A stretch of DNA of 29,420 nucleotides from an uncultured Planctomycetales bacterium (GCA_964396865.1 CAYNGE010000001.1:1-29420); one strand, 5' to 3'. Shown: positions 1 through 21,200, counted from the first letter of the stretch. Translations and numbers: made by a program. Notes: generated from the letters alone by a model not told the origin.

Positions 1-231
1 CCTTCCACGAAGACCCTCGTTCTGTCTTACAAAACTCCTCCACTCGGCGTTTACATCCCTTTTTTGAGAAAAATTTGGTTCATAAATAGTTACGTGCGCG
101 CCAAGCGAAGCGACGATCACCTCAACCTCAATAAGCTTATTGCGGAAATAACCGCCAAGACTAACTGTGCCCGGCCCAACGGAAACAGCCGACCGCCAAG
201 CCTCTCCTCCAAGCCGGTGAATGGTATCAAG
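1..231 (-). other. Start of class I SAM methyltransferase domain (3), truncated by the window edge
   Basis: SAVSVGPG...VIVASLGAHVTIYEPN (motif I and beta2 acidic residue). Confidence 0.65.
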
Positions 232-3200
232 AAACTCGGCATTCTCCATTGTCAATGGCGCATTGGGATGACGGATATTGTAATAAAGATGTGCGGCCGC
301 ATTTGATAAAAACGCGGCTGCAACAGATAAAATAACGACAATCAAATTCCCGATAAGCCCCGGAACCCCAATAAACCAAGGAAGAGTCAATAATGCTATC
401 TTCGCTGTAACCCCGCCGATCCCTAAACCCATCAGGGTTGCCAACTTCATATGACGCCAACCGGTCGTCATCTCGTCTCTTTTATTGGAATTCTCAGGAA
501 AATGCGAAGCTATATAATCACGCCGCAAGGATGCTTTTACCTCATACCACGGCGCAAAGTATAATTGGATCTGCCTGTTTGTCGCTTTCCACATTCCCAG
601 GCTTATCCAACTAAAGAATTTTCGTCCGGGTCCATAAGTCGTCCAAAGAGTCAGCCCCGCAACGGGTTGCGCGGCAAGCTGCATAGTTTCAATGACCTTG
701 CAGAAATAAAATGGTTTTTCAATGACCGCGCAGATGCCGCGCTTTTCATCGCGGATGTCGCCCTCCTCATTCAGGGCAAGTTCCGTAAGCTGTGGGAAAT
801 TCATAAACAAGGCAACTTCCTCAATGTCAACGCCGGCATCTCGCAAATTTTCCAATTCGCTGCGGACCAAAGCCATATGGCTAGGAAGGATCTTAGGATA
901 ATATTCATGAAAAAGCTCTTCAACGGCTTCCGGCAATAACAATCCTTCTGCGTCATAGCATTTCAACAAAGGATTTCCAAGGCCTTGTCTCTTTATGCCG
1001 GGGACATTTTCCAATAAAAAGAGCCTAAATTCCGCAATCGCCTGCTCCCAGTTTCCCTCCAGCGCATGCCTCCTGGCTCTGCCTAAGTTGCGAACGCTCC
1101 ATGGAAGACCGTTATTATCCGAGAATTTCCTAAAAATATTCATTTCAATGGCCGAGCTAAAATCATGTTCATCTCCTCCGCCGAAATCAGCTGCATTCTC
1201 TAGACAGAGACACCCCATCCATTTCTTGGCCTCGCAGGACATATGGTAGCAAGCACCGACATATTTCATAATTGCAGCGATCGCCTTCTGGTCGGTTCCG
1301 GCTTGAAGCGTTTCATGGACCCGCAGGAATGTTTCGTCAAGCATTTCATCTGACCGGCCAAAAAGAACAATCAGGCCATGAAGATCGCCCAAATCGTTCA
1401 CAGATAAACCGATTTTCTTCAACACCGCAGACTGCACGATCCTTTTTAATAGACCGCGAATCTGCTCATGTGGATTTATACTTTTAGAACTAAAGAGATC
1501 TGGACGTTCTTTAAGCAATTTATACCCACTCTCCTCCCACAATAAAATCCAAAGCTCATAGTACTCTGCCGGCCCCATGTTGACGCCCCATTGAGCGCTG
1601 TCAGGATTAAAAAGAAGGAACTTGGCTTTTTCACTAAGCGCAGGCCATCCTTCACTTTTCACTTTGCCCAAATGAGCAAGGGCCGTTTCATAGCCGGCCA
1701 AAAGTTCACGAGCGCGAGACATTCGGCCGGTTGCCGGTGAACGGAGCTTGGCCTCATCGCTTAAGATGATAAATTGTGCCCGCTTATTTTTCGCTTGGAC
1801 CGCCTTGATCGCCTCATCAACAATGTCCTTTTTAATGTCCTGATCAAAAGTAATAAGAAGTTTGGGCGTAATGCGATAAACATTCAAATACCGTTTAAGC
1901 GAAAACAAAGTCGTCATACACACAAAATTAAACCTGTCCCCTAACTCTCCTCTTATGCGCGCTGCTAAATCTTCGGCTTCGTCTATGGGCTGGGTGAGGA
2001 TAAAGACTGTCTCTTTTGCCGGATCAATTTCCGGATAATCATGATAAAGCTGACGTAACCGGGCAAGTTCAGCTTCTTTCTTAGAGGGTTGTTTGCTGGT
2101 CACCAGCCTATTGGCCGCATCAAATTCGGCAAGCTGCTTTTCGCGTAATTTCGTAATTTGCTCAAAAAATTCATAAAAACTATACGGCTTTTGTAGGATC
2201 GCGACCCTCTGGGCATCAGAACCAAACATTTCCTGCAACACATGTCTATACTCTGGCACCTCAAAACCGGTGCTGGCATACAAGATCGGGATCGTCTTTA
2301 ATCCATCTCTATACTCAAGAGTTTTGTCGCTAGAAGGAATGCCCAGATCAAAAATGGCAACATCAAACTTATTGCGCGCCATTACCGCCAAAGCCTCATC
2401 AGCATCAGCGACAATATCAAAATGGTATTGTGAAACAGAGCCGAAATGTATCCGTACGGATTGTTGCAAGCTATCACGTATGGAGTCGTTATCTTCGAGC
2501 CAAAGGATAGAAAGCCGGGCCGGCGGAGTCCGTGATACGCCGGATTGCAGGCGCGCCGTTTCGTGTGCCTTCACTGCTTCATCATATGCAGTAAGCTGTG
2601 CTTGGCGGGCCTCTTTAACCACTGAAGAAATTACATCTAACAAATCGCTTTTACAAAGCACCTCGATTTCTTCCAACGGAACTCCATAAAGCGCTTGAAG
2701 CTCAGCTCCCCCACCAAATGCAACAATGCCCTCCTTGTCCAACGCGGAAATAGTGATCATCCTACCAAGTTTATTGATATCCCATTCTTTACGTATAGTT
2801 GAATAAACCACCGAGCGGCTAACAATGACAGGACACGGCAATAGAAAATCAATAAACGACAAATCAAAAGTTTTTGTTTGAATTAGCCCTCTAACTTGCG
2901 CCCAACCTCGAGCGTATGTAAACTCATATTGTGAATCACTTGCAAAGGAGTCATCTAATTCATCTTTAATTGCTTTTGATATATCCTCTTCATCTTCGAC
3001 TATCAGCACTCTCAATTTTTCTGGTATTTGCGGCCCAGGAACAAGAACGGTCGCGCTACTGGACTGCCGGCGCGCCGCCTCGTATGCCTTTATCGCCTCA
3101 TCATAGGCCGCAAGCTGTGTTTGGCGAGCCTCACTCACTGAGGAAACAACTAAAGAAGCTGTATCTACGATGCCGGTTTCTATGGTCATGCGCCCTAACG

Positions 3201-6200
3201 TTTGACTGTCAATAAAATTCCCTAAATACCTTATGACTTCTTCCTCAGAGCTTGGGGCGCCGGTAACAGCAATAATATTACTAACATCGCTCAACTTCTT
3301 AGCGAATGCCTCTTTACCCTTCTCTCCTCCCATGCCGATAGTTACATCAAATACAACTAAATCAATGGCATTATCCGATAAAATCTTATTAGCCCCTGAA
3401 CAATTCGACGCGAAATGAAATTTGTATTCTGCGGAGGGGAATACGGCTTTTATCTTATTCTTACAGCAAGCTAATACTTGCCTTTGATCCTCCACGACCA
3501 GCACGCGCAGCTTAGCAGGATGAACTGGGGCTTGCACAACGCCGCTTGATGCGGTGGATGCCGGTTGCTGTACTGATTTTTGCGCTACCCTCTTATCCAG
3601 CCATCGCGCATGCCATTGCTCCACAATTGAAACAACGCGTTCGTTGGTAAAATCCTTTTGGCTGATGACGGTCTCACCAGGAATACAGAAACTCGCATCC
3701 TTCGAGGATCCCTCCGCCAAAAGCGAATGCATGATACATAATGCTTCAGGATTTGCTGAGAAGATATCCGTAGTTACGTCGCTCACTCTTGGGGCATTAG
3801 CTCCTCCACCGACATGAATTAACGCCAAATCAACATCACGGCGATATTGGGTAAGGAGAGCATCAAATTCCTCCCACGTCTCACGCCTCTCAACAACCCA
3901 TCCGGCATGGCGCTTAAGTTCTTCCTCAATTGTTTCATACCATCCGTGATAGTCAAAAATAACCACCCGAAATTCGTCCCTCCGTGCCGCAGGCGCAGGC
4001 TTATCTTTCTGTGCACGACTTTCTTTAAGCTTTTGGTCCATCCCTTTAAGCTCCAGAACTCCATGGAGCCGCTTCATCCATTCGGATTCCCAAGACGCCG
4101 GTACAAGCGGAAAGTTCAATGCTTCCTCCAAAAGTCCAATGAACGGCTGCACATCGGCCAAGTCATTTTCTGTAAATAGCCCTTTCTTCAATCCTCTCTG
4201 AACGGCAGACAAATCATTCAGTTTTCCGGCCAAGACTTTTTGGAAGATGGTCTTCTTGCTCTTGCCTCGCATGTGCTGCAAAACAGTCCACTCCAGCTTC
4301 CTATATAATTCTCCTAGATCTTTTCCTGAAGACTTCTTTGACAAAACGCATTCCTCAAGACGCTTGATCAACAAGGTTGATAACGGACTGCTCATCCATA
4401 TCGTAATCCTCTCATTAAAGGGGCTCTCATCAAGATATAATGACGCGTGCAGGCCGTCGCAAAAATAAGTTATCTCTTTTGTCGCCACCCACACTCCTTC
4501 GAATTCCTTATGACGGCGGAACTCCAGCGCGGAGGATAGCCCTTTGCGCAAAACCGGGCCATTGGCATAGGAAAATTCTTCCTGATTGATGCGGTCATGG
4601 ATCAAGGTGATGTTGTGCGCCGAACGCGAGCCCATATACGGGTCAACCAACACTCTGGCCATGGTTGTTTGATCAAGGACAGCTGAAGCCGCATCGTACT
4701 GGATGCGTATATACGGACGCCCAAATTCATTTTCAAACTTTTTAATCGTCTCTTTCGTCACATTTCTACCAAAGGCCACAACGCTTGCCTTAAATCCTTC
4801 GGGCTCCGTCGCGCCCAGGCCGATCGGCGTCTTGGCAATTTTCTTTTGGGATTGAAGAGTCTTCGACGCAACGACCAAGGGCTTACGGAAATCTCCGATC
4901 ATGGGACGCATCTGAATAATAGAAAAGACCGGGCCGGTAGACGAATGTTGGAGTCCCCACTCAACATCCATAGACACTCCAACCTCGTCTTCCAGCGCGT
5001 TAACAACCAAATTCAACACAGATGCATCTTGGGCGCTAAGCGGCGCAAAAGAGCCATTGATCTTGGAGTAACCGCCTAAAACCTTTTGAATCAAAGCGCG
5101 ATCGTCACGCGCACAATACTCTTTTCGTTTAAGACGAAATGCATAGGGCGTATCAAGGAATAAAGGTTGATACTCCATGGATGGCGCCTTTCCGCCCTCC
5201 GGCTTGGTGAACATATACTCTGCCGCATTCGCAAACATGGACTGCACAGCGTAATTCGTGTCACCAACAACCGCCTCAATTGAAGTATGGCCGGAGAAAT
5301 TTGACATCGCCACTCCTGAGACGTCAAAATCAAGAAATGGCTGGATTAAAATACCAAATCCTTCCTCTTCGCTTAAAATATCCGGCAGGCCCTCGATTTT
5401 CTTTTCTCCCTGGTATTGGCGAATCCAGATAATTTCAATGGCATCCTTAAAGATCGCTTTTACTGCCTGAGCAATGAGGTCCCTGTCGCACGCTCTCTTT
5501 GAGAGGAAAATTCCGGCGAGGTTACGGACAAACGAATCTTCCCAAGTGCCGCTTGAACGGGCAATGGCCCAGCCGGTCAATCCCGCCGCTTTATCTTTTA
5601 AAAAATTGTCCAGCTCATTAGAGAAATTAAAATTACTAATAAGGCGCTGCAATTCACGAAAATCCTGTTGTGTGAAACTACCTTTTGTCAGGGCCTTACG
5701 TATAGTCTCGTTGCCAGAGGTGACTAGTGCAGCATTGTCATGCAGAAAGATCGTCCAGGCCTCGCGGATAGCAACCGTCAACGAGGGCGTGATAGTCCGG
5801 ACATTGGCTCCGAGACGCTTGGCGATAATGGGTATAAGAATTTCCAGAATAATGGTCCACGCGATTTTCCCACCGTAAATCCCGGCAAGATACTCAAAAT
5901 AACGGCGCACGCCAACGGCCTTAAGGGCAAAATATTCGTTTTCGGCATCGGTACGTTGGGGGTAGGCCAAGAGGCTTGCCTCGTGCAGGCGGGCCATTAA
6001 ACATTCAACTTCATTTTCTTTGGATAAAAGCGGACGGTCGATATCGCAGCGTTCACCGCGGACAACGCTATGCAGGTTCGGCATCATCTTCCCGGCAGGC
6101 GGAGCCCGGGTTTCCATAGTGCCCATTTTCTCAAGGGCCGCGATAACCTTCTCATCGCCCGCGATCCTTTTGGCCTGGGCATCAACCTTGTGCAGATAAT

Positions 6201-9200
6201 CCCAATCTTCTGGACCAATGGAAATATTACCGGAAATTTCGTTTTGTATCGACGCTTCGCGTTGTTGAGGGTCCTTGGGCAATCGATCGTTCCTCTTGGC
6301 GCGGTGGGGATCGTTTGCAGCCGGCGGTATGGCGGAAATAGCAACAGAGGACGCTTGCAGAAGCCTGCGCAACTGGATGGGCTGCGGCTCGGCATTCTTT
6401 ACCACAATTTTAGGGCCCGACACAGGAAGAAGCGGTGTAAAGCTTTCCTGACCAGCCCTATTGAGAGCGTATTTAACAACGCCGCGCGCCTGCGTGAAGC
6501 GAAGAACGCCTCCATAATTCATATCCGACTCCAAACGACTGCGCCGTTCCATCGGAAGTGCAAGCGCCCTGCCGAGAAGAAAAGGCGTAAACGGTTTATA
6601 GCACCATCTCATTTTCTTTAGGCTCCGGCTCCCAGCGACAATCCTCTTGGCCAGCGTCTTATCCGGTGCCATGCCCGTGTAACCATGCGCAATCTTGACA
6701 TTCTTCTTACCAAACAGTCTTGTTGCCAACTCATAAGCGTACGCCAGATTTTTAATATACTCCCGACGTCCCAACAGCCTGTACCAGGCGCTCTCCGTTG
6801 TGATATGGAACCGTATGCTCAGTTTTAAATTGTGCTCCATTCTAATCCGGGCGATCATCGTCATCGCCTCCTCGCCGAAAGACCCCTTCAGAAATCCGGA
6901 CGTGCTAAACGAGTCCCCGAATAATACTTCCATCGTAAACCCACGGTCGCGCCAGGCCTCAACAATATGTCCGTAATGTTTGCTGAATAATGGATCATGG
7001 TAATCCTTAAGCGGGTCGGCACCGAACCAGTTAAATGCTAAGACAAAACGATTCTTAAAAGGCTCGCGGGGATCCTCACTGCAAAAGACTGTCATTTCGT
7101 CCATCAGTTCGACGATCCACGGCCACGGCATAGAGCTCGGGCGTATGGAGCATGGACGGCAGCAATAATCGCAATGGGTCGAACATCCTTCCGTTATGTC
7201 AACGTAAGCGTTATACATCGACCCTGCCAAAGACAACGCTTCTTTTGGATCCATGTGCTCGAAATACTTCTCAAACCATGCCGCCTGAGGGTTCTTAAGC
7301 GCGGCAACGAGCCGGGCAATCTCCTGTGCGTCCACCGGCGAGGACAAAGCCACATCGAGCGCCTTAACAAACTCGTGCCCCGCGGCGGATAACGGCGCCG
7401 GATACTTCGCAATAACTGTCCTCTGTTCTCTTAAAAATTCCAAGCCTTCTATCGAAAGCAGCTCCGCATGCTTGCGGCCAATTTTATTTTTATTATTAAT
7501 CTTTAAATATTGAAGAGGAGTCCCTGTCTTAGGTCGCTTGGGCAAATTAGACAATTCTCGTTTTTCTTTCAACACCTCGCGCGCCTCAAACAGTATCCTG
7601 CGAGTCGTTCCTTCGGGTTTTTTAATTATGCGACTAATTTCCAGTGCGGTAAGCCCTTCCAAACAATGCAGGACCAAAACTTGACCATGAAGACCGCCCA
7701 ATTCATCTATCCAATCTAATACCAAATTTAACTCTTCTCTTAACATTAGGTCGTTTGCCAGATCGACCGATTTATCTTGCAAGTCCTCTATTAGGCCTCC
7801 TCCCACAGCATAACGTACCCTATAACTTTTAATAAAATTAAGACTGCGATTTACGGCGATGGGATATATCCACGTATAAAAAGCTGATCCCCCTCGAAAA
7901 TATCTTAACTTTCTCCAAGCAGTAATAAAAGTCTCTTGGACGATGTCTTCGGCATCATGAAAATTCCTCACTATGGAAAAAACGATACTAAAAATCCTGC
8001 CCTTATATTGTTCCATCAGCATTTCAAAAGCCTGTATATCTCCACGTTTGGCGCGTTCGACTAATCCTGCATCTTTAAGACCCTTCCTATTGGTCATAGT
8101 GCGAATGGCAAAGGCTTCGGCAATTCTCGATTGATGATATTGATATTCACGGGTTTGATGGGCGGCGATACGGGCTTGGCGATTCTTTAAATCACTGTTG
8201 TTTGGATATTGCGCATGCAGGGCTGTAATAAACGCACGAACGGATGCCTGTTCACCCTGCGGATGGTCCTGAATAAACGCCTCAAGGAGAGCGGCGTATT
8301 GGTCCGGCCGTACGTTCCAAAAATCAGTCTCCTCATCTTCAGCCGCCTTCATAGCCACCGCAAGCGCGCGCTCATACTTGCCAGCCAGAAGCAACCTCTC
8401 ATACTTCTCCCTCGCCGTCTTGCGCATGGCGGGGGCTGAAGATCCTCCCGTTATCTTTTGCAGATCCTGATTCCTAATTTGTTGAGATTTAAAAGCAGAA
8501 TTTAATCGCCTGGTTGCATGCTTTATTGCCCCGTTTTTTAGTCCTTCCTCTACTGCAGATGTGCCCCAACACAATTCATAGCCGGCATGCCCATCCATCT
8601 GCCTATGAATTTTTGTATGCGCGATCAAACGATAAGCATGATAATAAAACCCAATCACCGTCGCCGTTATAGTTTTGCCCTTATACGTAAATTCAAGTTT
8701 CTCTCCAAAATCTACGTCCAAATATGACAATTTGCTTCGGGGCTCACTTAGGAAAGTCACTCGCCCCTTTAAGATATCCCCTAAATCAACTGTCTGCGGG
8801 GCTTCTTGTGAATCAGCAGGGCAAAGCGGACTATCAATAACCGGCAAAGCAATAGGGATGTATTTCAAAACACTTGACTTTAATGTCAACGCTTCCAATA
8901 TCATCACCCTTTTGATCTTCGGTGTTGGCGCATATTCCTGCCTAGAGACGCTTCCAGGCTCTGCAGATTTTTCGGTCAAACAAAGCCGGGGCTGCGTCTT
9001 GATATAAGCAATATCTCCCACCGATAGTAAAAGAGCTCTTTCTACACTTTGATCGATGCTTATTTTCTCCTTGCGAAGCCTTTCAACAGAATCAGCCATT
9101 ATCGGGATACTTTCTCCACAGCCCCAAAGATCAAGATGATCCATCCATTTTCTCAATAATTCATCAATATCTACCTCCTTGGCCTCAACTGGAACGATGT

Positions 9201-12200
9201 TTAATTCTTTCAGACGGCTCGGGAACAATTTGCTAATATCAATGAATGCCTCGTGGGACCCTTCTTTGTCCTTCGGGTTATGGTCCGGATGCACTTCCTG
9301 AACAAACATTCTGTAAATACTTTTTAATTCCTCTTCCGATTCAGCTGCGTCGATCAGTCTCTTGTATTTTGCTCTTACGCCTCCCCATTCGCCTCTTTCA
9401 TGGCTTTTAATTACCCCCTGTACAGGACATTTCGGATTATCCGCGTAATGCGCGACTGCCGTTGCCAAAATCCCCATCCTGCGGGCGCGACTGACAGGCG
9501 TTTCCATCAGATGGCTGCCCCTTACGGTTTGAATCATGCTAAAAATCTGCAGCCACCGCTTAAACTCCTGATCATAAATCCGGTCATATTTCTCCCCACG
9601 CAACAAAAGCAAAGTTTTATGGAGCTCCTGTACAGGTACCCAACCAAACGGTGTTAAAACCTCATCGTGCCAACCAACCCATTCCTTCGAATCACGACGG
9701 GAACCGTCAGGATTCGTCCTCGCCTCTTCCTCTCCGAGCACTCTGTTCCACATCGAATCTTCATTCAAATCCTGCGGAACAACGGCCAAAAGCTTCTTCA
9801 TCTCGGGAATCTTTTTTTCATTGATCAGGCTACGGAAAATCTTTAATTCAGCCTTATTACACGGTTGATATTTTCTGTACCAATCGCTTAATTCTGCCGC
9901 TTCGTCTACGGGCAAAACGAGAACCGTAACATGCCCACTCATGATATATTCCGGAACATAATGTGGAGAAAAAATATCGACGATAAAATCCTTATCCCCC
10001 ATTTTGACTAGAAGGTAATAATGTACCGCGCTGTCCTTCAACCGCTTGACAATGGCGACCTCCGCTTGCAGCCTCCTCTGAAGCGCCCAACCTAAAAGGA
10101 CATTCATCCAGCAAGAACCCTTTAACGCTTTTATTTTTTCAATACGCTGTGCGTCTTGATACGCCATCCGACAGAGCTGCTGATTTTCACTTGTCTTGCT
10201 ACCTACGGATGTTTTCTCCATCGCCATGGCGAAGAAGATGAAAGGAAGAAAACTGAAGATGTCATGGATAGACGGCAAATGACCAATGATAGACGTAAGA
10301 GGCCCCGCGCGGATGGCATGGGCGATGAAATTTCCAATCAGCAAAGACAACGCTACGGTTGTTATCCCCCATAACACCGGCATAATCGTATAGGCCATCG
10401 GCAAAAGAAAAAGCTGATTAGATAGTCGGGAGCCGCCCGTCTTGACCCTTTGGGCTCTTTTAACTTCCATGACCGCAAACGTCGTATTTTTATGGCGATC
10501 GGCTATATCAAAAATCTTCCAGGAATTCTGTTGATTATGCTGATGGATCCACTTCTGGACTCTTTGGTAATCTCTCTGAGCCTTGTAATAAATGGCCGCC
10601 TCCAGCGAAGAGCTTGTTTCTGATTGTTCAAGCGTTCTGTTTGTCATAAATGAAAAAACTTTTCCATCTTCTCTGCGGCCTGAGCGTCCGTTACGCTGCA
10701 CGGTATCCTTGTCAGATCCGGGGTCCGCATTAATAACCAATCTCACTTCATAATCTAACCCTACCTGACCAATGGAGCTTGAAACCAGCCAGATATATTG
10801 ACCCTCGTTAAACTCTTCCACCACTGTTTCCTGTTCCCTTTGCGTCTGCCGTATGCCGTCCTTCCCCCCTGATTGGCCCACAAGGATCGCCACTTTCTCT
10901 TTACCAACAATTTTTTGCAAAACCTGTTCAAGGTCCAAGATGAAACGCTTATTATTCGCAAATACAATGGCCTTAAAACCTTTTTTGCCCATGTTGTCTT
11001 GCGCAATTTTTGCCAATGCCTCCAATTTAGGATGAAAGACTTTATTTTCAAAGGCCCATTGCGCGATCCTCTCAACACCTGAATCTTTCAAAAATGGCAA
11101 AGTTTTTTTGCGCAATGTGACCAACTTGCCCATTGAAGCCGCCTGTTCTTTTTGCCGGAATTCTTCAATGGCATAATGGACATGCATTGGCCCGTATTTA
11201 ACGAATGTTGTAATGAGATGATTTAAATACACCAGATGGGTATACGCAATTGTGTGTTTCCCCCTGTCCTTAAGGCCCTTAACAAATGCGTCGTAACGGT
11301 CCCTATTCGGCAATAGGGCCGCGTCCTCGGTATCGGGGTATTGCCGTTTAAGGGCAAGCAAACCTCGAGCATACTCAAGCCGAAGTTTCAACTCTAACTT
11401 TTCCATGGAAACAAATCTTATAACTGCTTTGCGCAGATCTTCGGAAGTTTGTTTCTTTGTCTCCTCGCTATTAAGCCAGGCATGGACCTTGGCGGGATTA
11501 AGGATGGTAAGCTGTCCTTTTAAATAATCGATATATCGTCTAAGGTAATCTTGAACAGCCAAGGCATGCTCCCTGTCAGACTGAGACCCGCCTTTTTTTG
11601 GCTTTGTCGGTGCTTGTCGCTTGAGGGACCTTACCTGCTGTAGAATTTCAATCTCCGGGTCCACTTGCAGCAACTTTATTAATATATCAACCGCCGTTTG
11701 CCATTGGGCAGTATCTTCTGAATTGGCCTGATCTGTGATCTGTGCCCTTAAATTCTGATAAAATTCTTCGTCTAAACAACCCGCCCCTTTGGCTCGATCA
11801 TAAAGCTGATCAACAAACGCCAGTAAAAACTTTTCATGTTCTCTATATGAAGTATCTACTTTAATAATTTCGCGCTTATAAATATATGGTTGGATCAATG
11901 GATCATCATCAGCAATGGCCAAGACCCCCTCTTGGGAGATACGAAACAGCTTTATCCAGATCTGAATATCGCTTGGGGTGCCGTCATCAGGCCTATTAGG
12001 AGTATCGGGCGTTGCGGTCAATGCCAATAAATACGGCGGCAACTGCTGAACGGACATGCCCTGGTTAGACGCCTCTTGTTCTTTAAATTTGTGCACTTTT
12101 TCGACCAGTTTTGCCGAACTGCTTTTTTTACGCGCCATATGGGACTCATCAACGATCAAAAATGCTATCTGCTTTAAATAATCATCTTTCATTTGGACAA

Positions 12201-15200
12201 CCAAATCGCTGGTGGCAATGATGATCTTGCTTTCTTTCCAAATTTTTTCTCGCTCTTTACGCGAATGTTCCCTGGCCATAAGAGCAACAGGGACTCCTCC
12301 TGATGCCCCTTTTCTGCCCGGGCCGAGTAACCGGTTGAACAATTTATAATGTTGTCTGACCAATGGATTTGAGGGGGCCACAAACACGATCTTCTTATCA
12401 AAGCTGCTTTGAATATCTCCACGGGTCTGTAAAAGATACGCCGCCATAAGCACCGCAATCCCTGTCTTGCCTAAAGAAGTTTGTAAAAATACCGCTGAAT
12501 TTCTTAGCGTGCTTTGGGCTGCCGCCAACACTTGATACGCCCTAAATTCAAAATAAGCATTCAGCTGCCTGCCTTTTACGGAATCGATCATAAAATGATG
12601 GCCGAGTTCCGGATCCTCGAAATGTTTGATGGCTAACCCTAAATGCTTGATTACGGCTTGAACATTCGGATCGTTTTGCATCTCCGTTTCAAGCTGCCCG
12701 CGCGCTTGTATGACCTTTGCATCCAATGTTCCCTGTTTTATTTTTAATCGTTCCTTTTTAAGCTGATTTTGCATCTTCTTCATCCAGTAAGATTTTTTAG
12801 CTAAGGCCCACGGAAACATTTCTTCTTGGGGGGGCTTATTCTCTGATTGCTGCAATTCTGGTTTTCTCCCTCCCACTAAGTAATGTTCGGGAATATCTGT
12901 TGTATTAGTCAGAATAAAATCAGCTGGAATGGCATCTATATGTTGGGCATTAAAATGATCGGGTTCGTTGCCTTGAGGATAGGCAATGTGGATCAATTGA
13001 TCCTGGCCTAGTTTAAGGATATATTCATCGGCATCCCTTCTCTTATATAGCAGCATCTGCGTACCGAATTGAGCTAACTTGGGCTGTAGTCGTATTAAAG
13101 CCTGTTTTAAGACAAGCAATTTGCCCTGCGCCTTATCCCCATCAAGCCAGCCACAAACAGTTTCAATATCTACATTAACTAACGGGACCACCTCTCTAAT
13201 CAAGCAATTGTCCTTTTTGCCTACCTGGACACTTGGATTGCTTAAAAGGGCTAATCGCTCAAGGAATTTTTTCGGGTTATTATTGAACGGCTCCAATCTC
13301 TTTTTGGTCTCAAGAGATTCTTCCGTGTTCAAAAGATCAAGCCCACGCAAAACAGGATAGCTGGCCATCCCAAACTGATCCCAGCGGCTTAGTTTATTGA
13401 CCATCACCCTCTTCTCGTTAAAATATTTATTAACAGCAACGATAAACCCTTGTGTGTCGAATTTATGAGAATCCGGCAACCCCGCTTGAAATTGTTCTAT
13501 CTCTTTTTCTTTTCTGGCTTGCGTCACATAATATTCGGAAAGTCTTCCAACGGTCTGGTCAAATTCTGTTTGAACCCTTGTCTCAAAATTCGTTCGCTCT
13601 GCTTCAGTTAGCGCTAACTTTTGGGCGATGGCCTGTAACTCCTCAGTCAATTGCTTTGCAACCGAGACTCTCGCAACGACAGTAACATCCCCCGGCTCTT
13701 CTTCTTTCTCCTGAATAGCTTCAATTTCTTTCGCGATCCAATCATTGATTTTAGCTGCCACGTCCTTGAACTGTTGATCAATGGCCCCTTGTCTCGCTTT
13801 GCGCTCCTGCTCAAGAATTAATTGCTTTTCTCTATCGCCCAATCTCAACTGCAGATTCCGTTTCATCGCGTCAAAAACAGAATTTCCTTCACCGGCCGTA
13901 AAGCGCACCGTCTCGGTGGCGGCAACTCTCGACTCATGACATTGATATTCACGATCTTGATGGGCGGCGATACGGGCTTGGCGATTCTTTAAATCTCCGT
14001 TGTCGGGATATTGCGTATGCAGGGCTGTAATAAACGCACGGACGGTTCCCTGTTCGTTCTGGGGATGGTCCTGAATAAACGCCTCAAGAAGAGCAGCATA
14101 TTTCGCCGGGGATAAGTTCCAAAAAGCGTTCTCCTCATCTTCGGCCGCCTTCATAGCCACCGCAAGCGCGCGTTCAAACTTGCCAGCCAGAAGCAGCTTC
14201 TCATACTTTTTCCTCGCCGTCTTGCGCATAGCGGGCGCATCCCTTGATGCTTGCAGAAGCCTGCGCAAATCATCAGATTGCAACTCGCCGCCCTTCACCA
14301 CAATTTCAGACCCCGGCACAGGCAGAAACGGCGTAAAGCTTTCATGGCCAGCCCAATCGAGAGAGTGTTTAACAACGCAGCGCGCCTGCGTGAAACGAAG
14401 GACATCCCAAACTTCCTTCGTCGGTCCCAAACGATTGCGACTTTCCAACGAAAGAGCCAACGCCCTGCCGATAAGGCTGGGCTTGTACGGTTCGTAGCGG
14501 CACTGATCCATCGCCTCCAGATTATCACCGACAATTTCTTCTGCTAGCGCCTTATCCGGCGCCATGCCCGTGTATCCCTGCACGATATAGACATTCTCCT
14601 TACCAAATAGGCTTATCGCCAACTCACAGACATTCGCCAAATGTTTGACATACGTCAAACGGCCTAATTGTCTGTACCAGGCGCTCTCCGCTGTGATATG
14701 AATCCGTATGCTCCGTTTTAAATTGCGTTCCCTGCTAAGCCGGGCGGTCATCGTCATCGCCTCCTCACCGATAGATCCCTTCTCAAAGCCGGACGTGCTA
14801 AACACATCCCCTATTAATGTTTCCATCGCGAACCCATGATCGTGCCAAGCCTCGACGACATGTCCATAATGTTTGTTAAATAATGGATCATGGTAATCCT
14901 TAAGGGGGTCCCCTGCGAACCAACTAAACGCCATGGTAAAACTAGTCTCAACAGGCCCGCTAAGGTCCTCCTTTCTGTAAAAAGCCGCCATTTCGTCCAT
15001 TAGTTCGACGATCCACGGCCACGGCATGGAGCTCGTGCGCATGGAGCACGGGCGGCAGCAATAATCGCAATGGGTCGAACATCCTTCCGTTATGTCGACG
15101 AAGGCCTCATGCTTCATCCAGGCCAAAGATAACGCTTCTTTGGGATCCATGCGCTCGAAATACTTTTCAAACCATGCCGCCTGCGGGTTCTTGAGCGCAG

Positions 15201-18200
15201 TAACGAACGCGGCAATCTCCTGCGAGTCCACCGGTGAGGACAAAACCGCATCGAGCGCCTTGACGAACTCGCGCCCCGCGGCGGATAACGGCGCCGGATA
15301 CTTCGCAAGAATCATCCGCCGTTCCTTCAGGAATTCCAATGCTGCATCCAAACCCCGGGACGACCGATCCTGAAAAGATCTTACGCTTGATCCAATCCGG
15401 AGCGCATTTAATTTGTGAGCCCATGCTCTCCGACATTCTTGCGTATTTACTTGAGCTACCATGTCAAGGGGATTGAACGCAAATACAGGCCCCCCAAGAC
15501 ATTTATAATTGGACCATGATCTCATGGAAAAATACCCAAAAGTCTGCGGATCGTAATTAACGGCATAAAGCATTCTCACATCGTATAAATTAAATAAATA
15601 TAACATCAGCAATGTCCCAATCTGCCTTTTTTGGAAATTGCGATCCACATGGATCATAAATACCATTAAACTCCGCCGTCCCTTATAACGCACAACTTTA
15701 TAATCGATTTGAGCAATCACCGCCTTCGTTTTTTCCTCATTGATCACGATCCTATTCTTAAAAAATAACACCCTCTGACCATTTAAAGAAACCCGTGCTC
15801 CCACTCTATTTGAGATCAAATCCAAGAAGGCCTCTCTTAAATGTTCGGCTTGCCCGTCCTTCTTAATAGCGCACCTTGAGGGACGAATATGGTTCCATAG
15901 CCGATACATAAATATCTTCACATATTTAAAAACCTCGCCGGCAAAATCTACTATTAATCCGGCAAGAATACCACCAGCGTGACCAAAATTGCCTATCGGA
16001 ATAAACAATCCTAACAAAATCATCCAGACAAAATTAGTCCACAACAATTTTTGGCCTTTCAATTCTATATAAGGATAAGGGATGACCATAAATTTCTCAT
16101 AAGGAAAATATCGGGAAAAAGCTGCCATCAAGGCAAAGATCCCTGCTGAAGAGCCCACACAGCTCATATTACTGTATGTGAATAAAAGCCTGTTCCCTGC
16201 TTGGGAAGAAGCGGCTATCATGACCGGCAAAGTCCCTTCTGCTATACCTCCCAAAACAATGCCTAAAAAGAAAATCTTTAAGAATGCTCCCCGTCCTTTT
16301 TTCTTCTCAATGTCTTTACCAAAGACGTAAATGACCGCCCCGTTGACAAACAAATGAAATAACGACCCATGAAGAAATCCGTAAGTAAACAACGTCCAAA
16401 GATGTCCTCTTATTGAGTTATCCAGAGAAAGCCCAAACCAAGAAATCATGGGAGGGCCAATGATTAATTGTGCGAGATATACTCCTAAGATGGTAATCAT
16501 CACGGCATTGACACCAGGCCGCCATTGACCCGACGAACGCTTTTGCTCTTTGACTTCCTTCCAGAAGAAATAGCTAATAAGCATCGTAATCATTGCCCCT
16601 TGTGTATACGGCGCGACCGAATAAAACATATTATGATTGATAAAAAACAGAGCTAATTGAAACAGTAAAACTAGCGATACTCCCAAACAGACGGCCAGTC
16701 TCGGGATTGCGCCTTCAGGGATATCCTTGGATGAGCAAACCTCTTTGGTAATTGCTAAAATAGCATCAATCTTTCTTTTAATGAACTTTCCCCAACCTAG
16801 TTGATAGGCAATGGCGACACCAATAATGGCCAATCCCAACACAACGACAAAAGGCGACTGTGTCAATGATCCAAAGGACATCATGACCGTTCCAAAGGCC
16901 ATTTGAACTCCCGAATATCTTGCGCTTGAACCAATCGGCATGGCGGGAGCCGTATCTGAAAAATCTTTTATTTTTTGTAGTGGAATATGCGCCGCAATAA
17001 TGTGCCCGCCCAACGCTAATCCTTCCTCATATATATCATTACGCCAACCCAATTCTATAGACGGTTTGATGCGCCAATAATCAAGTTGTTCAAAAAGGTT
17101 ACTGATCCCGAAATTGTGCCCTCCGACATTGGTTGCTGATTTTGGAGCTTTAGGCCCTCTCCAAGGATGATGATCAGCATTAAACCATTTTCGTTTAGTT
17201 AGATGTTCTGGCAACGGGTGTTTTCCCTCTCCCCATATTTCAAAACGTAGGCCAGGGCAAGGCCTATCATGAACAAAAATTCGAATGACGGGCGAGTACC
17301 CGTCTCTGGCCTCATGCTGAATGATATTTTCCATAATAAGGCTCAACACTAATAACAAAGATTGGTCGGGATCTTTAACAATATCTTTGATATCAAACCC
17401 TTCTTTCGTTGCTGCAGAAATAATGATATTAAACAATTCCATATCCAAAAATCCCCTATTAGCATTAGCTCCTTCAACAAAGGTCTCCCCTCTTAAGGTG
17501 TACCTGCTAAGCACGATAAAAGGGACTTGGTTATTCCATACGGCTGATCGTTGTCTTAAAAATGCTTCATTAAAACTATACGGCTTCGGAAAGACCATCT
17601 TCCCGACAGCCATGCCGAGAACGAATAAAGGAAGGGCGCCAAAAATATCAACTAACATTTCCGGCCCTGTACGGATAAAGTTTGCGACGAGTTCATGAGC
17701 GCTGATAAGAAATGTCTGCACGCCGGGCCAATAATGGCCAAGCACCGTAATGGCAAACCCGCAGAACGCGACAGATGCCGCATCCTGAGAATCATTCCTG
17801 GCAGCTTTCGCAAGCGCCGGCATTTGCGTTGCATGATCTATGCTCGCTGCCGACGGATTGACCTCTGCGCGAAGCCGGGCATCAGGATGCTGTTTAAGAA
17901 AAGCCAGCGCTTGTTGCGCTGATCCCATCTCATCGTCATCCAGCGCCACTTTGCTAAAGATCCTCTCCCGCACGCACGCAAAAAAGAACCCAATAGAGAT
18001 CTCATCGGACCGGACTTCCCAAAGAATAGTACTTTTACGGGCCAGCCCAACCACCCGATGCATCAACGCCAAACCTATGCCGCTATGAGTATCGGCACCA
18101 CGATAGATACGTAACGCCACTTCCGCCTCTCTTTGATTCCCTTCCGCTACGCGGGGATTGAAATACATCTCCCCGATGGCCTGCTGTTGACGGGCAACAA

Positions 18201-21200
18201 TATAATGGTGCGGCTGGATCTCAAGTAAGCTCAAATCAGGTTTTAAAGGCACCGCCAGCACGCGCAACTCTTTTGATTCGCAAGTGCCTATTGAGACGGC
18301 GTATACCCAAAACATCTGCTTAAGCCTTTCAAGTGAACGTTCGGTCGGAGAGCGTTCAAACAAATGCTGGGTAAAATGAGGCACTTGATGATTAAAAAGA
18401 CAAAGACAAATGAGCTTAGCCATGATCTCCGAGACCCCGTTGAGTTGTTTCTCCGTAAGGGGCTCAACGCTCTCGAGAAATCCCCCTACCCCGTGGGCAA
18501 AGGGCACGATCAAAGCAGGCATCTGGGTACAGATATCGACGATCATATCGGTCAGTTTATGGTTGATCTCGCAAGGAGGATAATTCACATCATGGGCACG
18601 TAAAACAAGGACATCGACTAACCGTGCCAAGGCCGGCGCTTCGGCGCTCTCATCCATGCGAAGGATCCTATTTTTAATTTCATCATATTTATACGCATCA
18701 ATAAGCCCATTGAGTTCTTGATCTGTCATAGCCAGGGGCTTCTCTGGCAACTCCATTACTTTACGTGCCAATAGAACTGACTTGAGCGCATTTTCTTCTT
18801 GGCCCATGAGATTTACATTTTCAAAACGTAACACTTCATTTAAGTGAGGGTTGTTAAGAAGGTTTACGGGAATAATGACTTGTTTATCGAGGACGCAAGA
18901 AATAAGGAAGGAACCTTCTGACTCAAACCAAAGATACGGCGGGGCACGGTCAGATATGCTTACATTAGGAATAAAAATACGCACGGCCTCACTCTCAAGA
19001 AGAGGCTGATTAATAGGCAGAAGAGCTTGGACCATTCTATTTTTTATTTCCGGTGATATATCACGGAAACGCACCAATTCTCCGCCCTTTAAAACTTTAC
19101 GGGTATGTTGTTCTGCTTTTGGGCTCATTTTATTATTCTCAACCGTTCCCACACCACAGGACTTTGGCGCACTGCCTGCGGTCCCAGGATCTGAAATCTT
19201 CGCGATATCCACCCGGTACATCGGCTGATACATGGGAGGAGCCGGCCGCTTGTGAAGACGGCCAACCTCAATATAAGCGGCCAAAAGCTGGATCCTAAAC
19301 GGAACAAGAAACGGGAATGGATCTCGAGGATACCTGTTGACCATAATTAAAGACGAATTATTTCTGTCATACGTATATTGCTGCACCTGTGTCCTTGAAT
19401 TCAACGCGTCAAACAAAATCTTTGGACCATGGTCCCCAGATGCCGTGAGGTCCTTTAGCCAAACCCGATTAATACTGTGAATGAACGCCTGCCCATTTTT
19501 CCTGAGCGCCCTTTTGATCTCACGAACAAGCCCAAGCTGGTCTTGGATATATTCGCTCGTGGCTGCAGGAACCAATACCATATCAAAACTCTGATCCTTG
19601 TATAAACCAAGCCCTTGGTCTACATCGTGGATAGTCAATCCTTTCTCAAATGAATACTGAAATTTTTTGATTTCATTGATGGACGGCAGCCGGCCGCTCT
19701 TCCAAATCTTATAGCGTTCCTTCAAGGTCTCTCGATATTGACGGGCACCGACCCTGATCGTTTCCTTATTAATATAGGTAAGACGAATCCTCTGCCCGCC
19801 AAGGAGCTTGCGGATCGTGCGGACAATCTCGCCGGCACCAGCGCCAATGATCAAGATGTCCGCCCTGCCCTTCTGATCCAAAAGTGCTTTGATCGACCGG
19901 CTGATCTGACCATTAAAATGGTCGTCCTCCATTAGAAAATCCCGCATTACGTTGCCTTCAGCTTGATAAGGATTTTGACATGGCAGTGCCAGATCAACTG
20001 TTCTTGCGGCTTGATATAGAGAAAGGCCGGCATCACAAATAAGTTTCTTGAACGCCGCTCTCATGGCTCTGGCCCGCGGACAAGATTGGGGGTCCGGAAA
20101 ATAAGCCATATGAACATCCAGATTTTCCAGATGTCCATTGACTCTGACGAGTTTATTGAGCAATGCTCTGGCGCTGCGAGCCTCCTGCAGGCCATTGAGG
20201 AGGGCCAGAATTTCTCGAATAGCCACAAGGTTTGTTTTGATCCTATTCTTTTCAAACTCTACCCGCGAAATCGGTGCGTATGCCTTTATTCCCTCAACTA
20301 CTTGGGCTAAATTTTCCCGAACAGAATGAACATCGCCCTTGATCTTTATAAGAAGTTCTGCAATCTGCAAAGGAGCGCCCTCAATGCCCGCCATGGCTTT
20401 GATTTTTCCTATTACAGCCGGAATATCTTTTATAAGCAAATCTACCGGCAGATCCGTATGATAACGACCATTCCACTTATCCATGAGTGTTTCAATATCC
20501 TGCGAAGCATCAGCCGCTCTAAGATCGGCCAGAAGCTCTTCGGCAAGCACCTTGGCCTCGGTTATTTTCTTCTCTTGAATAAGGCGTCTTATCCCGTCTA
20601 TCGCCAGATGGATCGAGGTCGCACCCGCACCCGTATAGCTTGGTAATTGATTGGCTCTAAATTCTATTTCATTTTCAGCATAGGCGGATCTCAGCGGTTC
20701 CTGAGTTTGCAATAGCGAGGTCAAAACACCGCCATATTCGATGACTTGATCGATGAGCTCGCATGCGCCATCTATATGTTTCTGACCAAGCTGCAGGATA
20801 CGCGGATTCTCGCCATAAATCGACGCTGATGGCCTTCCTAGATTTATTGATACCGCTTCCGGGAATTCGACCAATAATCTACGGCCGTTGTGAAAACTAC
20901 CCGCGGAGTCCTCCAGGACCATCGCCTCCTGAATTTTAATTTCAGGGCAGGCGGCCAGCAAGCTGCGCACCGCACCGGCCTTGTCTGATTTAACGATCTT
21001 GACGCTTGACCTTCCGGCTTTATAAATAAAGTATGGCAATTTCTCTTCACTTAACTTACTTCGCAGGATGCGAACGAATTCATCCTGATCGGCGATATTC
21101 GTTAGATCAATCCGCGTAGAAGGAGAGATCCTCTCCGGCCTTGTATCGTTTTCAAATTGGCCTTCAAAGAGCCCATTGAGAATATCCGCGATACGGCCTC

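Follow-up and report, generated by a model that had tools for sequence, protein, structure and literature searches.

A rhomboid protease embedded in a giant multi-enzyme reading frame and its possible role in cleavage at membrane hairpins

Introduction

The DNA analyzed here, a stretch of 29,420 nucleotides from an uncultured Planctomycetales bacterium (GCA_964396865.1 CAYNGE010000001.1:1-29420; hereafter, the window), encodes a chain in which a membrane-embedded protease sits among hydrophobic segments, regulators, and enzymes. This raises the question of whether a giant bacterial protein might be cut by its own protease, as the initial annotation had suggested, and what such cuts could release.

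A giant reading frame without interruption

The minus-strand frame that begins at nt 29418 runs through 9,806 codons with 0 stops, whereas each of the other five frames contains 345 to 768 stops. The frame is an internal segment of a larger ORF, open at both ends and lacking a start or a stop within the window:

nt 1..29418, minus strand: giant ORF, internal segment; amino acid i corresponds to nt 29418-3(i-1), counted downwards

The chain comprises approximately 20 enzyme or regulator modules and approximately 10 hydrophobic clusters, with at least 10 distinct Pfam families in the window. Among the paralogous modules inside the chain, dN/dS ranged from 0.35 to 0.47, indicating that the giant frame is under purifying selection at the protein level. 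GC skew and composition are even over the whole window, and a search of it for structured RNAs, tRNAs, and tandem repeats returned none. The frame could alternatively be something other than one real protein, either an assembly chimera or a decaying gene fusion. All the observations above argue against this reading, namely, the lack of stops over 29.4 kb, the purifying selection on the internal paralogs, and the uniform window clear of such elements, as does the fact that a class of such giant genes is already known; no positive support for a chimera or a decaying fusion was found, and we consider it extremely improbable.

Ten large proteins that share modules with the chain were looked up; six are named as Candidatus Omnitrophota and one is labelled Deltaproteobacteria. 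Most are partial giant proteins, and the overlap is confined to single modules at 27 to 41% identity. With more than 9,806 codons, the ORF displays the features that define the giant class, that is, a reading frame on the scale of at least 10 kaa, many domain families, and multiple transmembrane (TM) helices. The class-1 "multi-enzyme" giants of Gorgyraeia, 80% of which are sequence singletons, carry methyltransferase, receiver, and radical-SAM domains together with many TM helices, gather dozens of unrelated enzyme families, and in one case include a signal peptidase II (Nielsen & Lui 2026, bioRxiv 10.64898/2026.06.07.730766). The chain resembles them in its many tiled Pfam families, its methyltransferase, receiver, and radical-SAM content, its inner-membrane-anchored architecture, its singleton sequence, and its internal domain repeats without nucleotide tandem repeats; the rhomboid, the ECF sigma factor, and the Hef-like helicase described below have no mention in the text or supplement of that work. 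Taking its anatomy as a whole, the window is almost certainly an internal piece of one Omnitrophota-type "multi-enzyme" giant gene, a likeness drawn through the module-sharing relatives.

Soluble modules of the chain

The following soluble modules were placed along the chain:

nt 16939..17439 (aa 3994-4160), minus strand: module X, a conserved domain of unknown function, immediately upstream of the rhomboid cluster
nt 14236..15342 (aa 4693-5061), minus strand: module B copy 1, divergent radical-SAM-like, with the motif CSTHCDYCC (self-BLAST)
nt 10672..12552 (aa 5623-6249), minus strand: Hef/FANCM/RIG-I-type superfamily-2 helicase (DEAD, ResIII, Helicase_C)
nt 7561..8097 (aa 7108-7286), minus strand: complete ECF-type sigma-70 factor, regions 2 and 4 (PF04542, PF04545)
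nt 6340-7446, minus strand: module B copy 2, radical-SAM-like (self-BLAST)
nt 2209..3504 (aa ~8639-9070), minus strand: three diverged response-regulator receiver domains (PF00072, self-BLAST)

The sigma factor and the helicase named in the initial annotation were both recovered. The former is matched by NCBIfam RpoE-type models and by PDB sigma-E 1or7 (residues 8-187, E=5e-23), and the latter, of Hef/FANCM type, is matched by NF010337 (Hef, E=2e-41) and by PDB entry 1wp9. The two copies of module B align with 57 to 80% identity in self-BLAST; PF04055 is weak in their free-standing homologs, and there is a weak MiaB/RimO match. Module X, which has no Pfam match and no PDB profile match, is common to large, mainly Omnitrophota proteins and to free-standing proteins of 170 to 480 aa. 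Two SAM methyltransferases, a J-domain, and a PPDK_N/ATP-grasp domain are also part of the chain. A MraZ domain had been listed as well; zero Pfam families were found in aa 1-981 at E<=1, and a PDB sequence search with aa 151-420 (E<=1) gave no match, to MraZ/SpoVT-AbrB or otherwise, which leaves MraZ unsupported.

An intact rhomboid in the middle of the chain

The rhomboid and its catalytic positions were placed as follows:

nt 15928..16515 (aa 4302-4497), minus strand: rhomboid protease core, six TM helices (PF01694, alignment, AlphaFold2, Foldseek)
nt 16342..16356, minus strand: TM2 motif H4355xxxN4359, aligned with GlpG "MHILFN" (H66 invariant, N70 at least 90%)
nt 16147..16149, minus strand: catalytic Ser4424 in TM4, motif G4422-S-S4424-A-G (invariant G and S alignment columns)
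nt 15979..15981, minus strand: catalytic His4480 in TM6, followed by G4483xxxG4487 (H191 and G194 invariant, G198 at least 90%)

Pfam PF01694 matches the core with 65.2 to 72.2 bits, against a gathering score of 22.6, and with E values from 1e-17 to 7e-20. In an alignment of 26 rhomboid sequences, on which conservation was judged, all invariant columns are retained (H4350, H4355, G4367, G4375, G4422, S4424, P4449, H4480, and G4483), as are N4359 and G4487, which belong to columns conserved in at least 90% of the sequences. The TM6 signature reads H4480-AG-G4483-ILA-G4487, and in TM2, H4355-LFV-N4359 lines up with GlpG "H-ILF-N"; we take H4355 and N4359 to be the counterparts of GlpG His150 and Asn154, the oxyanion-hole residues. 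The AlphaFold2 model of the rhomboid reached a pLDDT of 88.3 and a pTM of 0.86. When it was searched with Foldseek, the 34 best PDB matches were all GlpG structures (probability 1.0), with TM-scores against Escherichia coli GlpG of approximately 0.55 to 0.65 when normalized by the query and of 0.62 to 0.77 when normalized by the target; weaker matches include iRhom and derlin structures. The flanks on both sides of the core are rich in Lys and Arg, suggesting an N-in/C-in orientation. The claim of a rhomboid with intact Ser and His, at the very codons given for them, is thus borne out, and the conserved residues together with the predicted fold suggest that the enzyme is probably catalytically competent.

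Like GlpG and the free-standing bacterial rhomboids (PF01694, MEROPS S54), the protein has a six-TM core, a Ser/His dyad, and a GlpG-like predicted fold, and it shares with GlpG the GxS of TM4, the H plus GxxxG of TM6, and the HxxxN of TM2. Unlike GlpG, it sits at least ~4,300 residues into a chain of more than 9,806 aa, with extra hairpins alongside, and it carries approximately 13 additional amino acids between TM3 and TM4; the GlpG "WR" motif is "WT" here and "WQ" in the closest subfamily.

Hydrophobic clusters and the claimed second protease

Numerous hydrophobic segments were identified by hydrophobicity, in line with the many extra TM helices of the initial annotation:

nt 27076..27183 (aa 746-781), minus strand: putative membrane hairpin; weak helix with 26% glycine, PVGP turn, strong helix, then K/R
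nt 25048..25167 (aa 1418-1457), minus strand: putative membrane hairpin; helix 1 with 31% glycine
nt 24478..24639 (aa 1594-1647), minus strand: putative membrane hairpin or cluster (hydrophobicity)
nt 23311..23379 (aa 2014-2036), minus strand: single hydrophobic segment, then KRFRISKAKRSK (hydrophobicity)
nt 17605..17655 (aa 3922-3938), minus strand: single weak hydrophobic segment (hydrophobicity)
nt 16561..16914 (aa 4169-4207 and 4242-4286), minus strand: two putative membrane hairpins just upstream of the rhomboid (hydrophobicity, charge)
nt 10219..10413 (aa 6336-6400), minus strand: hydrophobic cluster (hydrophobicity)
nt 307..444 (aa 9659-9704), minus strand: putative Gly-rich membrane hairpin inside the claimed CPBP module; two hydrophobic helices, turn PWFIGVPG

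Judged by hydrophobicity and the positive-inside rule, most of these clusters look like helical hairpins. The usual pattern is a weak helix of 16 to 31% glycine and a strong helix, joined by a short Pro/Gly/Asn turn and followed by Lys or Arg. The single segments at aa 2014-2036 and aa 3922-3938 depart from this hairpin pattern.

The last hairpin of the list lies within a stretch (nt 250-642, aa 9593-9723) that had been described as a CPBP-like module. PF02517 was absent from nt 250-642 and from nt 1-801 at E<=10, as was any other meaningful Pfam match. One of the three CPBP motifs, HxxxN, is present (HLYYN, aa 9710); FxxxH is absent from the module, and the sole EExxxR (EEGDIR, aa 9551) lies outside it in a soluble stretch. 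No homologs of the module were found among 5.8 billion proteins, and its single-sequence AlphaFold2 model was unusable (pLDDT 43). With no profile match and with motifs missing, a CPBP/Abi intramembrane metalloprotease at this position is not supported, and the module resembles a further Gly-rich membrane hairpin. The window also lacks HExxH and S2P motifs, any GxGD within a membrane segment, and further protease matches in Pfam. The rhomboid, of which there is a single copy in 9,806 aa, is the sole recognizable protease in the window; of the two different intramembrane proteases claimed, one remains, and the proposed setting of proteases beside TM segments and cytoplasmic-type proteins in one chain holds for the rhomboid and fails for CPBP.

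What the rhomboid might cut

The hairpins would staple the giant chain to the inner membrane, both of their flanks staying in the cytoplasm, and an active rhomboid would be held covalently in one membrane patch with the Gly-rich hairpins of its own chain. Since the periplasmic turns of the hairpins would face the outward-opening active site, and since their second helices would run N-out/C-in, as classical rhomboid substrates do, these hairpins, in the same chain or in neighboring copies, would be the likeliest substrates. Rhomboids cleave TM helices carrying helix-destabilizing residues, close to the outer end of the helix, and polytopic proteins are also cut, as in the case of Bacillus subtilis YqgP acting on MgtE. 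Reading the arrangement of these segments in this way, we tentatively propose self-cleavage at the hairpins, to which we give somewhat less than an even chance. No ortholog was found that would show whether the rhomboid or the hairpins are conserved.

The segments between hydrophobic clusters measure from 136 to 3,258 aa, and cleavage at the hairpins would yield large multidomain pieces of these sizes that are still anchored in the membrane. The TM-free stretches of 1,838 to 3,258 aa contain several unrelated domains. The sigma factor lies within the 3,258-aa stretch, together with the J-domain, a radical-SAM-like module, the ATP-grasp domain, and the three receivers; its nearest membrane segments are 707 aa upstream (ending at aa 6400) and 2,372 aa downstream (starting at aa 9659). 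Cleavage of membrane segments therefore cannot free individual effectors as regulated intramembrane proteolysis frees a transcription factor, which limits the triggered release of effectors put forward in the initial annotation. Acting by itself, the rhomboid could not resolve the chain into free proteins: the sigma factor, the helicase, and the other individual proteins would stay in their pieces, and finer maturation would need other proteases.

Several features count against self-cleavage at the hairpins, among them the lack of a repeated cleavage motif and the two single segments that depart from the hairpin pattern. A hairpin with two cytoplasmic ends differs from the classical single-pass substrate, and giants seem to accumulate ordinary host genes of all kinds, so that the rhomboid may be a captured enzyme. 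Such an enzyme could act in trans, on other proteins, from an intact membrane-tethered scaffold, taking part, for instance, in the quality control of membrane proteins or the processing of secreted or pilus components. Its nearest relatives are ordinary free-standing rhomboids: at 80 metagenomic rhomboid loci the longest ORF does not exceed 671 aa, and among the best 150 matches of an exhaustive search, all matches to the rhomboid region are 118 to 451 aa long. The dozens of unrelated enzyme families accumulated in the giant class make the chance capture of a rhomboid expected, and the presence of only one in the chain fits as well. Against action in trans, a tethered rhomboid would have restricted diffusion and its own TM segments all around it, and it is missing the PF20216-type cytoplasmic domain conserved at the C-terminus of its nearest free-standing relatives, a loss on capture that may have changed its substrate handling. 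We regard action in trans as possible, if on balance somewhat unlikely. The rhomboid might also be a nonproteolytic module that helps marginal Gly-rich helices by membrane thinning or insertion, as derlins and iRhoms do. Noncatalytic proteins with roles of this kind are known in the rhomboid superfamily, the weaker fold matches include iRhom and derlin structures, and the chain is rich in weakly hydrophobic helices whose insertion may be poor; nevertheless, every catalytic and oxyanion residue is kept, which is unexpected for a pseudoprotease, and active GlpG structures are the best fold matches, making this role very unlikely.

A polyprotein matured mainly by others is a further alternative, in which the cuts between soluble modules would be made by host cytoplasmic proteases or by a C39, S8, or signal peptidase encoded beyond the window, leaving the rhomboid little or no share. 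Self-cleavage by C39 or S8 domains near the N-termini has been proposed for giant Omnitrophota proteins, where it is an open question (bioRxiv 10.1101/2023.11.21.568195), the ORF extends past both ends of the window, and the several unrelated domains within the long TM-free stretches could not be parted by a rhomboid. However, no such protease occurs within the 9,806 aa, and double-glycine sites of the C39 type (ELxxIxGG) are not enriched, with 1 observed against 1.3 expected; we consider maturation mainly by other proteases unlikely.

Comparison with known processing systems

A protease in the same chain, as a polyprotein would have, was found in the form of the rhomboid; no cleavage motif repeated at hairpins or module junctions was found. 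In flavivirus-type polyproteins, soluble modules and TM segments alternate, with proteases acting on both the membrane and the cytosolic side; viral polyproteins are cut at defined, conserved junctions, those in the cytosol by a soluble protease of the virus. The chain shows the same alternation of modules and TM segments, but neither a junction motif nor a soluble protease was found in it. The chain also combines a sigma factor with an intramembrane protease, as does the regulated intramembrane proteolysis that activates sigma factors (pro-sigma-K with SpoIVFB, RseA with RseP). In those cases, however, the protease belongs to the site-2 metalloproteases and the segment that is cut lies next to the sigma or anti-sigma domain, whereas here the protease is a rhomboid and the sigma factor lies far from the TM clusters, with no anti-sigma domain adjoining it and no cut TM segment tethering it directly.

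The closest published idea comes from the Omnitrophota giants of West-Roberts et al. 2023 (bioRxiv 10.1101/2023.11.21.568195), which resemble the chain in their giant ORF, their numerous TM helices, and their patchwork of divergent domains, as well as in the notion of a precursor cut by an in-chain protease. The window differs from them in having no C39, S8, SecA-DEAD, dockerin, or carbohydrate-active domains and in a content that is regulatory and enzymatic rather than adhesive; its protease is an intramembrane serine protease, a kind absent from the text of that paper. The cutting of Omnitrophota giants by an in-chain protease is thus a published idea, and a rhomboid in that role is absent from that literature. 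An M48 membrane protease occurs in one of the module-sharing giants and an ECF sigma factor in the one labelled Deltaproteobacteria.

A single giant reading frame under purifying selection

A six-frame stop count showed one minus-strand frame, from nt 29418, without a stop in any of its 9,806 codons, and 345 to 768 stops in each of the five remaining frames. No complete gene was found inside the 29,420-nt window, where no complete ORF exceeds 183 aa (ORFs running off the ends are not counted). Since the frame is open at both ends and no gene is complete, the window represents the internal part of a gene of more than 29.4 kb, whose product we call the giant chain. GC content (0.42 to 0.52) and GC skew (negative on the plus strand) are both even along the window, and no RNA-level subdivision was seen in it, Rfam families, tRNAs, and tandem repeats all being absent. 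The domains and duplicated modules of the giant chain were located by profile searches and self-comparison.

Domains and modules of the giant chain
aa 1062-1400, 5062-5398, and 6977-7106 (nt 25219-26235, 13225-14235, and 8101-8490), minus strand: module A, from self-comparison
aa 1826-1931 and 3189-3313, minus strand: SAM methyltransferases, from profile matches
aa ~3994-4160 (nt 16939-17439), minus strand: module X, a conserved domain just upstream of the rhomboid cluster
aa 4338-4492, minus strand: rhomboid, Pfam match to PF01694
aa 4693-5061 and 7325-7693 (nt 14236-15342 and 6340-7446), minus strand: module B, from self-comparison
aa 5623-6249 (nt 10672-12552), minus strand: Hef/FANCM/RIG-I-type superfamily-2 helicase, NF010337 and PDB 1wp9
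aa ~6691-6730, minus strand: J-domain, slightly under the Pfam cut-off
aa 7108-7286 (nt 7561-8097), minus strand: complete ECF sigma factor (regions 2 and 4), profile and PDB matches
aa 7871-8173, minus strand: PPDK_N/ATP-grasp domain, from profile matches
aa ~8639-9070 (nt 2209-3504), minus strand: three diverged receiver domains, from profile matches

The copies of modules A and B, with unit sizes of approximately 340 and 370 aa, are dispersed within the gene, share 57 to 82% identity, and are not accompanied by nucleotide tandem repeats. Between copies, dN/dS was 0.35 to 0.47 and dS 0.34 to 0.54, so purifying selection acts on the frame, which is translated as protein. Judged from this divergence, the gene has been enlarged by fairly recent internal duplication, and selection retains both copies. 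Module B is assigned as a divergent radical-SAM-like domain on the basis of the motif CSTHCDYCC, a weak PF04055 match in its free-standing homologs, and a weak NCBIfam MiaB/RimO match. Module X shows an invariant residue pattern, with the consensus ENLxQHE...RVY...GxRIEFWGPG...LPxxLTxKxWF...DRPW...GWRED..EG..GGHIIAxHIP. No Pfam family was matched by module X of the giant chain or by five free-standing homologs, nor was a PDB profile match obtained, and its reading as a histidine-kinase-like ATPase was dropped on these Pfam and PDB profile results. A HAD-like reading by eye of aa ~2640-2880 was without Pfam support and is not claimed.

The ECF sigma factor matches residues 8 to 187 of Escherichia coli sigma-E (PDB 1or7; E = 5e-23). 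It lies thousands of residues from either chain end, and no anti-sigma domain adjoins it. Profile and PDB matches bear out the initial annotation in placing a sigma factor and a helicase in the same chain as a rhomboid, and the MraZ domain also listed there was dropped, as neither Pfam nor PDB matches support it. The helicase is of the Hef/FANCM/RIG-I type, whereas giant Omnitrophota proteins are reportedly typified by the SecA-DEAD type. The receivers are approximately 22 to 34% identical to each other, and a similar helical linker follows each, for example EARQTQLAAYDEAIKAYEAAR and EARQAQLTAYDEAVKAHETAR (aa 8621-9163); the receiver-plus-linker unit looks like an old triplication.

The rhomboid retains its catalytic residues

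The rhomboid scored 65 to 72 bits against PF01694 (cut-off, 22.6), and its serine and histidine are exactly where they had been annotated (Ser4424, nt 16147-16149; His4480, nt 15979-15981). In an alignment of the giant-chain copy with 25 free-standing relatives, all invariant columns are retained (H4350, H4355, G4367, G4375, G4422, S4424, P4449, H4480, and G4483), as are the near-invariant N4359 and G4487 (at least 90% conserved), and the TM1-TM3 stretch aligns to GlpG, HxxxN motif included. An AlphaFold2 model built on the 26-sequence alignment reached a pLDDT of 88.3 and a pTM of 0.86; GlpG structures fill the first 34 places among its PDB matches, with a probability of 1.0 and TM-scores of approximately 0.55 to 0.65 (query-normalized) and 0.62 to 0.77 (target-normalized). 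The flanks before TM1 and after TM6 are rich in Lys and Arg, which fits the canonical N-in/C-in orientation of rhomboids. By its residues, the rhomboid is real and catalytically intact, and it is probably active as a protease.

The closest free-standing rhomboids possess a conserved C-terminal cytoplasmic motif, FISxEVDPILxKISxxGIxSLTxxERxILExAR (PF20216 in P0001; also in P0015). The giant-chain rhomboid is without this PF20216-type motif, which means that the capture took in the six-TM core only.

One protease rather than two

The initial annotation had placed a second intramembrane protease, of the CPBP type, at nt 250-642 (aa 9593-9723). No match to PF02517 was obtained there, even at an E value of ≤10, and only one of the three CPBP motifs is present (HLYYN), FxxxH being missing and EExxxR not being found inside the module. 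Homologs of the segment numbered zero among 5.8 billion proteins, and its single-sequence AlphaFold2 model (pLDDT, 43) was unusable; the CPBP identity was abandoned. What the segment holds is two hydrophobic helices with the turn PWFIGVPG between them (aa 9659-9704), which, as read from the sequence, are the same hairpin design found elsewhere in the chain. When all 9,806 residues were scanned for motifs, HExxH and S2P-type LDG did not occur and GxGD was not present in any membrane segment, and by these searches the rhomboid is the sole recognizable protease within the window. The record is thus corrected to one protease: of the pair, the intact rhomboid stands and the CPBP protease does not.

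C39-type double-glycine sites (ELxxIxGG) are not enriched at hairpins or junctions (1 observed versus 1.3 expected). A good match, DLQKITGG, lies near the start of the third copy of module A (aa 6985-6992; nt 8464-8487, minus strand), and is probably due to chance, the number of sites being at expectation.

Glycine-rich hairpins that would staple the chain to the membrane

Membrane segments were sought by hydrophobicity scans and a ΔG-type scale whose values are approximate. Approximately 10 hydrophobic clusters were computed in the giant chain, in agreement with the many extra membrane segments noticed initially. Five of them share one design (aa 746-781, 1418-1457, 1594-1647, 4169-4207, and 9659-9704), in which a weakly hydrophobic first helix with 16 to 31% glycine (versus 6.2% chain-wide) is followed by a short Pro/Gly/Asn turn and then by a second, strongly hydrophobic helix with several Lys/Arg residues after it. 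Further clusters lie at aa 4242-4286 and 6336-6400. If the five are taken to be helical hairpins, both flanks would be cytoplasmic, as they must be for SAM-, ATP-, and DNA-dependent modules, and the rhomboid would have its normal orientation. The inter-cluster segments measure 745, 636, 136, 366, 1,885, 230, 1,838, and 3,258 aa.

The hairpin model does not fit a pair of single segments at aa 2014-2036 and 3922-3938 (nt 17605-23379, minus strand). Between them lie 1,885 aa including a SAM methyltransferase, and if both segments were membrane-spanning, all of these residues would be placed in the periplasm, an implausible location for an enzyme that depends on SAM. The pair may thus not be genuine TM helices; otherwise, the topology would have to be unusual. 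A similar topological ambiguity has been reported for giant Omnitrophota proteins (bioRxiv 10.1101/2023.11.21.568195). Overall, the window encodes a membrane-stapled chain of cytoplasmic modules, with one intact rhomboid and no second protease.

Possible cleavage of the chain by its own rhomboid

The claim that two proteases process their own chain was half wrong, and its mechanism, unproven, would be constrained by the anatomy of the chain. The rhomboid would be covalently confined among the Gly-rich hairpins, whose periplasmic turns would face its outward-opening active site and whose second helices would run N-out/C-in, as in classical substrates. Together, these features would make the chain's own hairpins the likeliest substrates, a tentative reading to which we give somewhat less than even weight. 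The sigma factor lies 707 aa from the nearest cluster, within the 3,258-aa segment that also holds the J-domain, a radical-SAM-like module, the ATP-grasp domain, and the three receivers. Given these segment lengths and this placement, cuts by the rhomboid would leave large, still membrane-anchored fragments and no free effectors. The proposed triggered release of effectors, in the manner of a transcription factor freed by regulated intramembrane proteolysis, does not agree with this arrangement; the rhomboid by itself, as predicted from the layout, cannot free the sigma factor. Maturation in the style of viral polyproteins would need further proteases, and none is visible in the window. The full proposal, that the rhomboid cleaves the Gly-rich hairpins of its own chain, in cis or between neighboring copies, and converts a precursor of more than 10,000 aa into membrane-anchored multi-enzyme fragments, seems to us unlikely as a whole.

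The main rival is that the rhomboid represents one more captured host enzyme, working in trans. Giant genes gather enzymes of all kinds, and in the 80 closest metagenomic loci the rhomboid never sits within a long ORF, the longest open frame being 671 aa; we rate this explanation slightly below cleavage of the chain's own hairpins. Proteases encoded beyond the window might process the chain, an improbable scenario that is compatible with the other readings. The rhomboid might also serve as a non-catalytic membrane-thinning element, but its active site is intact, which makes such a role very unlikely, and an artefact is scarcely credible.

Whether giant bacterial proteins, with tens of thousands of residues, act as whole chains or as pieces is stated to be open in the literature. 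An intact rhomboid with neighboring candidate TM substrates offers a cheap and tractable experimental route into whether giant proteins are cut. If the hairpins are cut, the chain would be the first cellular (nonviral) polyprotein in bacteria whose maturation is due to an intramembrane protease, and it would give a concrete answer as to whether giant Omnitrophota proteins work whole or in pieces. Cleavage would add intramembrane proteolysis to the routes of maturation and broaden the biology of rhomboids to include polytopic substrates cut in cis; its absence would favor giant genes as accretions of host enzymes that function while fused. Giant multi-domain Omnitrophota genes are already known, and self-processing through C39/S8 domains has been proposed for their products as an open question (bioRxiv 10.1101/2023.11.21.568195). 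The new element is a rhomboid inside such a chain, of which we found no mention in the papers on these proteins that we consulted.

Relatives of the giant chain

No ortholog of the giant gene was found in 5.8 billion clustered proteins (searched with three segments), GTDB genomes, JGI metagenomes, or IMG/VR. When aa 3850-5049 were searched exhaustively with HMMER against 1.84 billion representatives, the query fell into three independent modules. Among the best 150 matches, those to the rhomboid part were all ordinary rhomboids, 118 to 451 aa long. Modules X and B had matches in free-standing proteins as well as in large partial ones of 2 to 6.5 kaa; module X occurs free-standing (170 to 480 aa) and as a part of large partial proteins, most of which come from Omnitrophota MAGs. 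TM segments also come after module X in at least one relative, and a partial 1,195-aa MAG protein (P0006) likewise pairs module X with an ECF sigma factor. Ten large module-sharing proteins were looked up, of which six are recorded as Candidatus Omnitrophota and one, which bears an ECF sigma factor, as Deltaproteobacteria in their source records. The large relatives have only single modules in common with the giant chain, at 27 to 41% identity.

From its relatives, the window would itself be of Omnitrophota origin. In architecture it agrees with the giant Omnitrophota proteins of the "multi-enzyme" class, which are anchored in the inner membrane, carry methyltransferase, receiver, radical-SAM, and other enzyme domains, contain repeated domains without nucleotide tandem repeats, and are approximately 80% sequence singletons (bioRxiv 10.64898/2026.06.07.730766). 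One multi-enzyme giant includes signal peptidase II (bioRxiv 10.64898/2026.06.07.730766). Membrane-protease modules may be recurrent in the giant-protein class. A partial 3,301-aa Candidatus Omnitrophota protein that shares a module with the giant chain (P0013; MBI4708181.1) contains the Peptidase_M48 domain of an HtpX/Ste24-type membrane metalloprotease.
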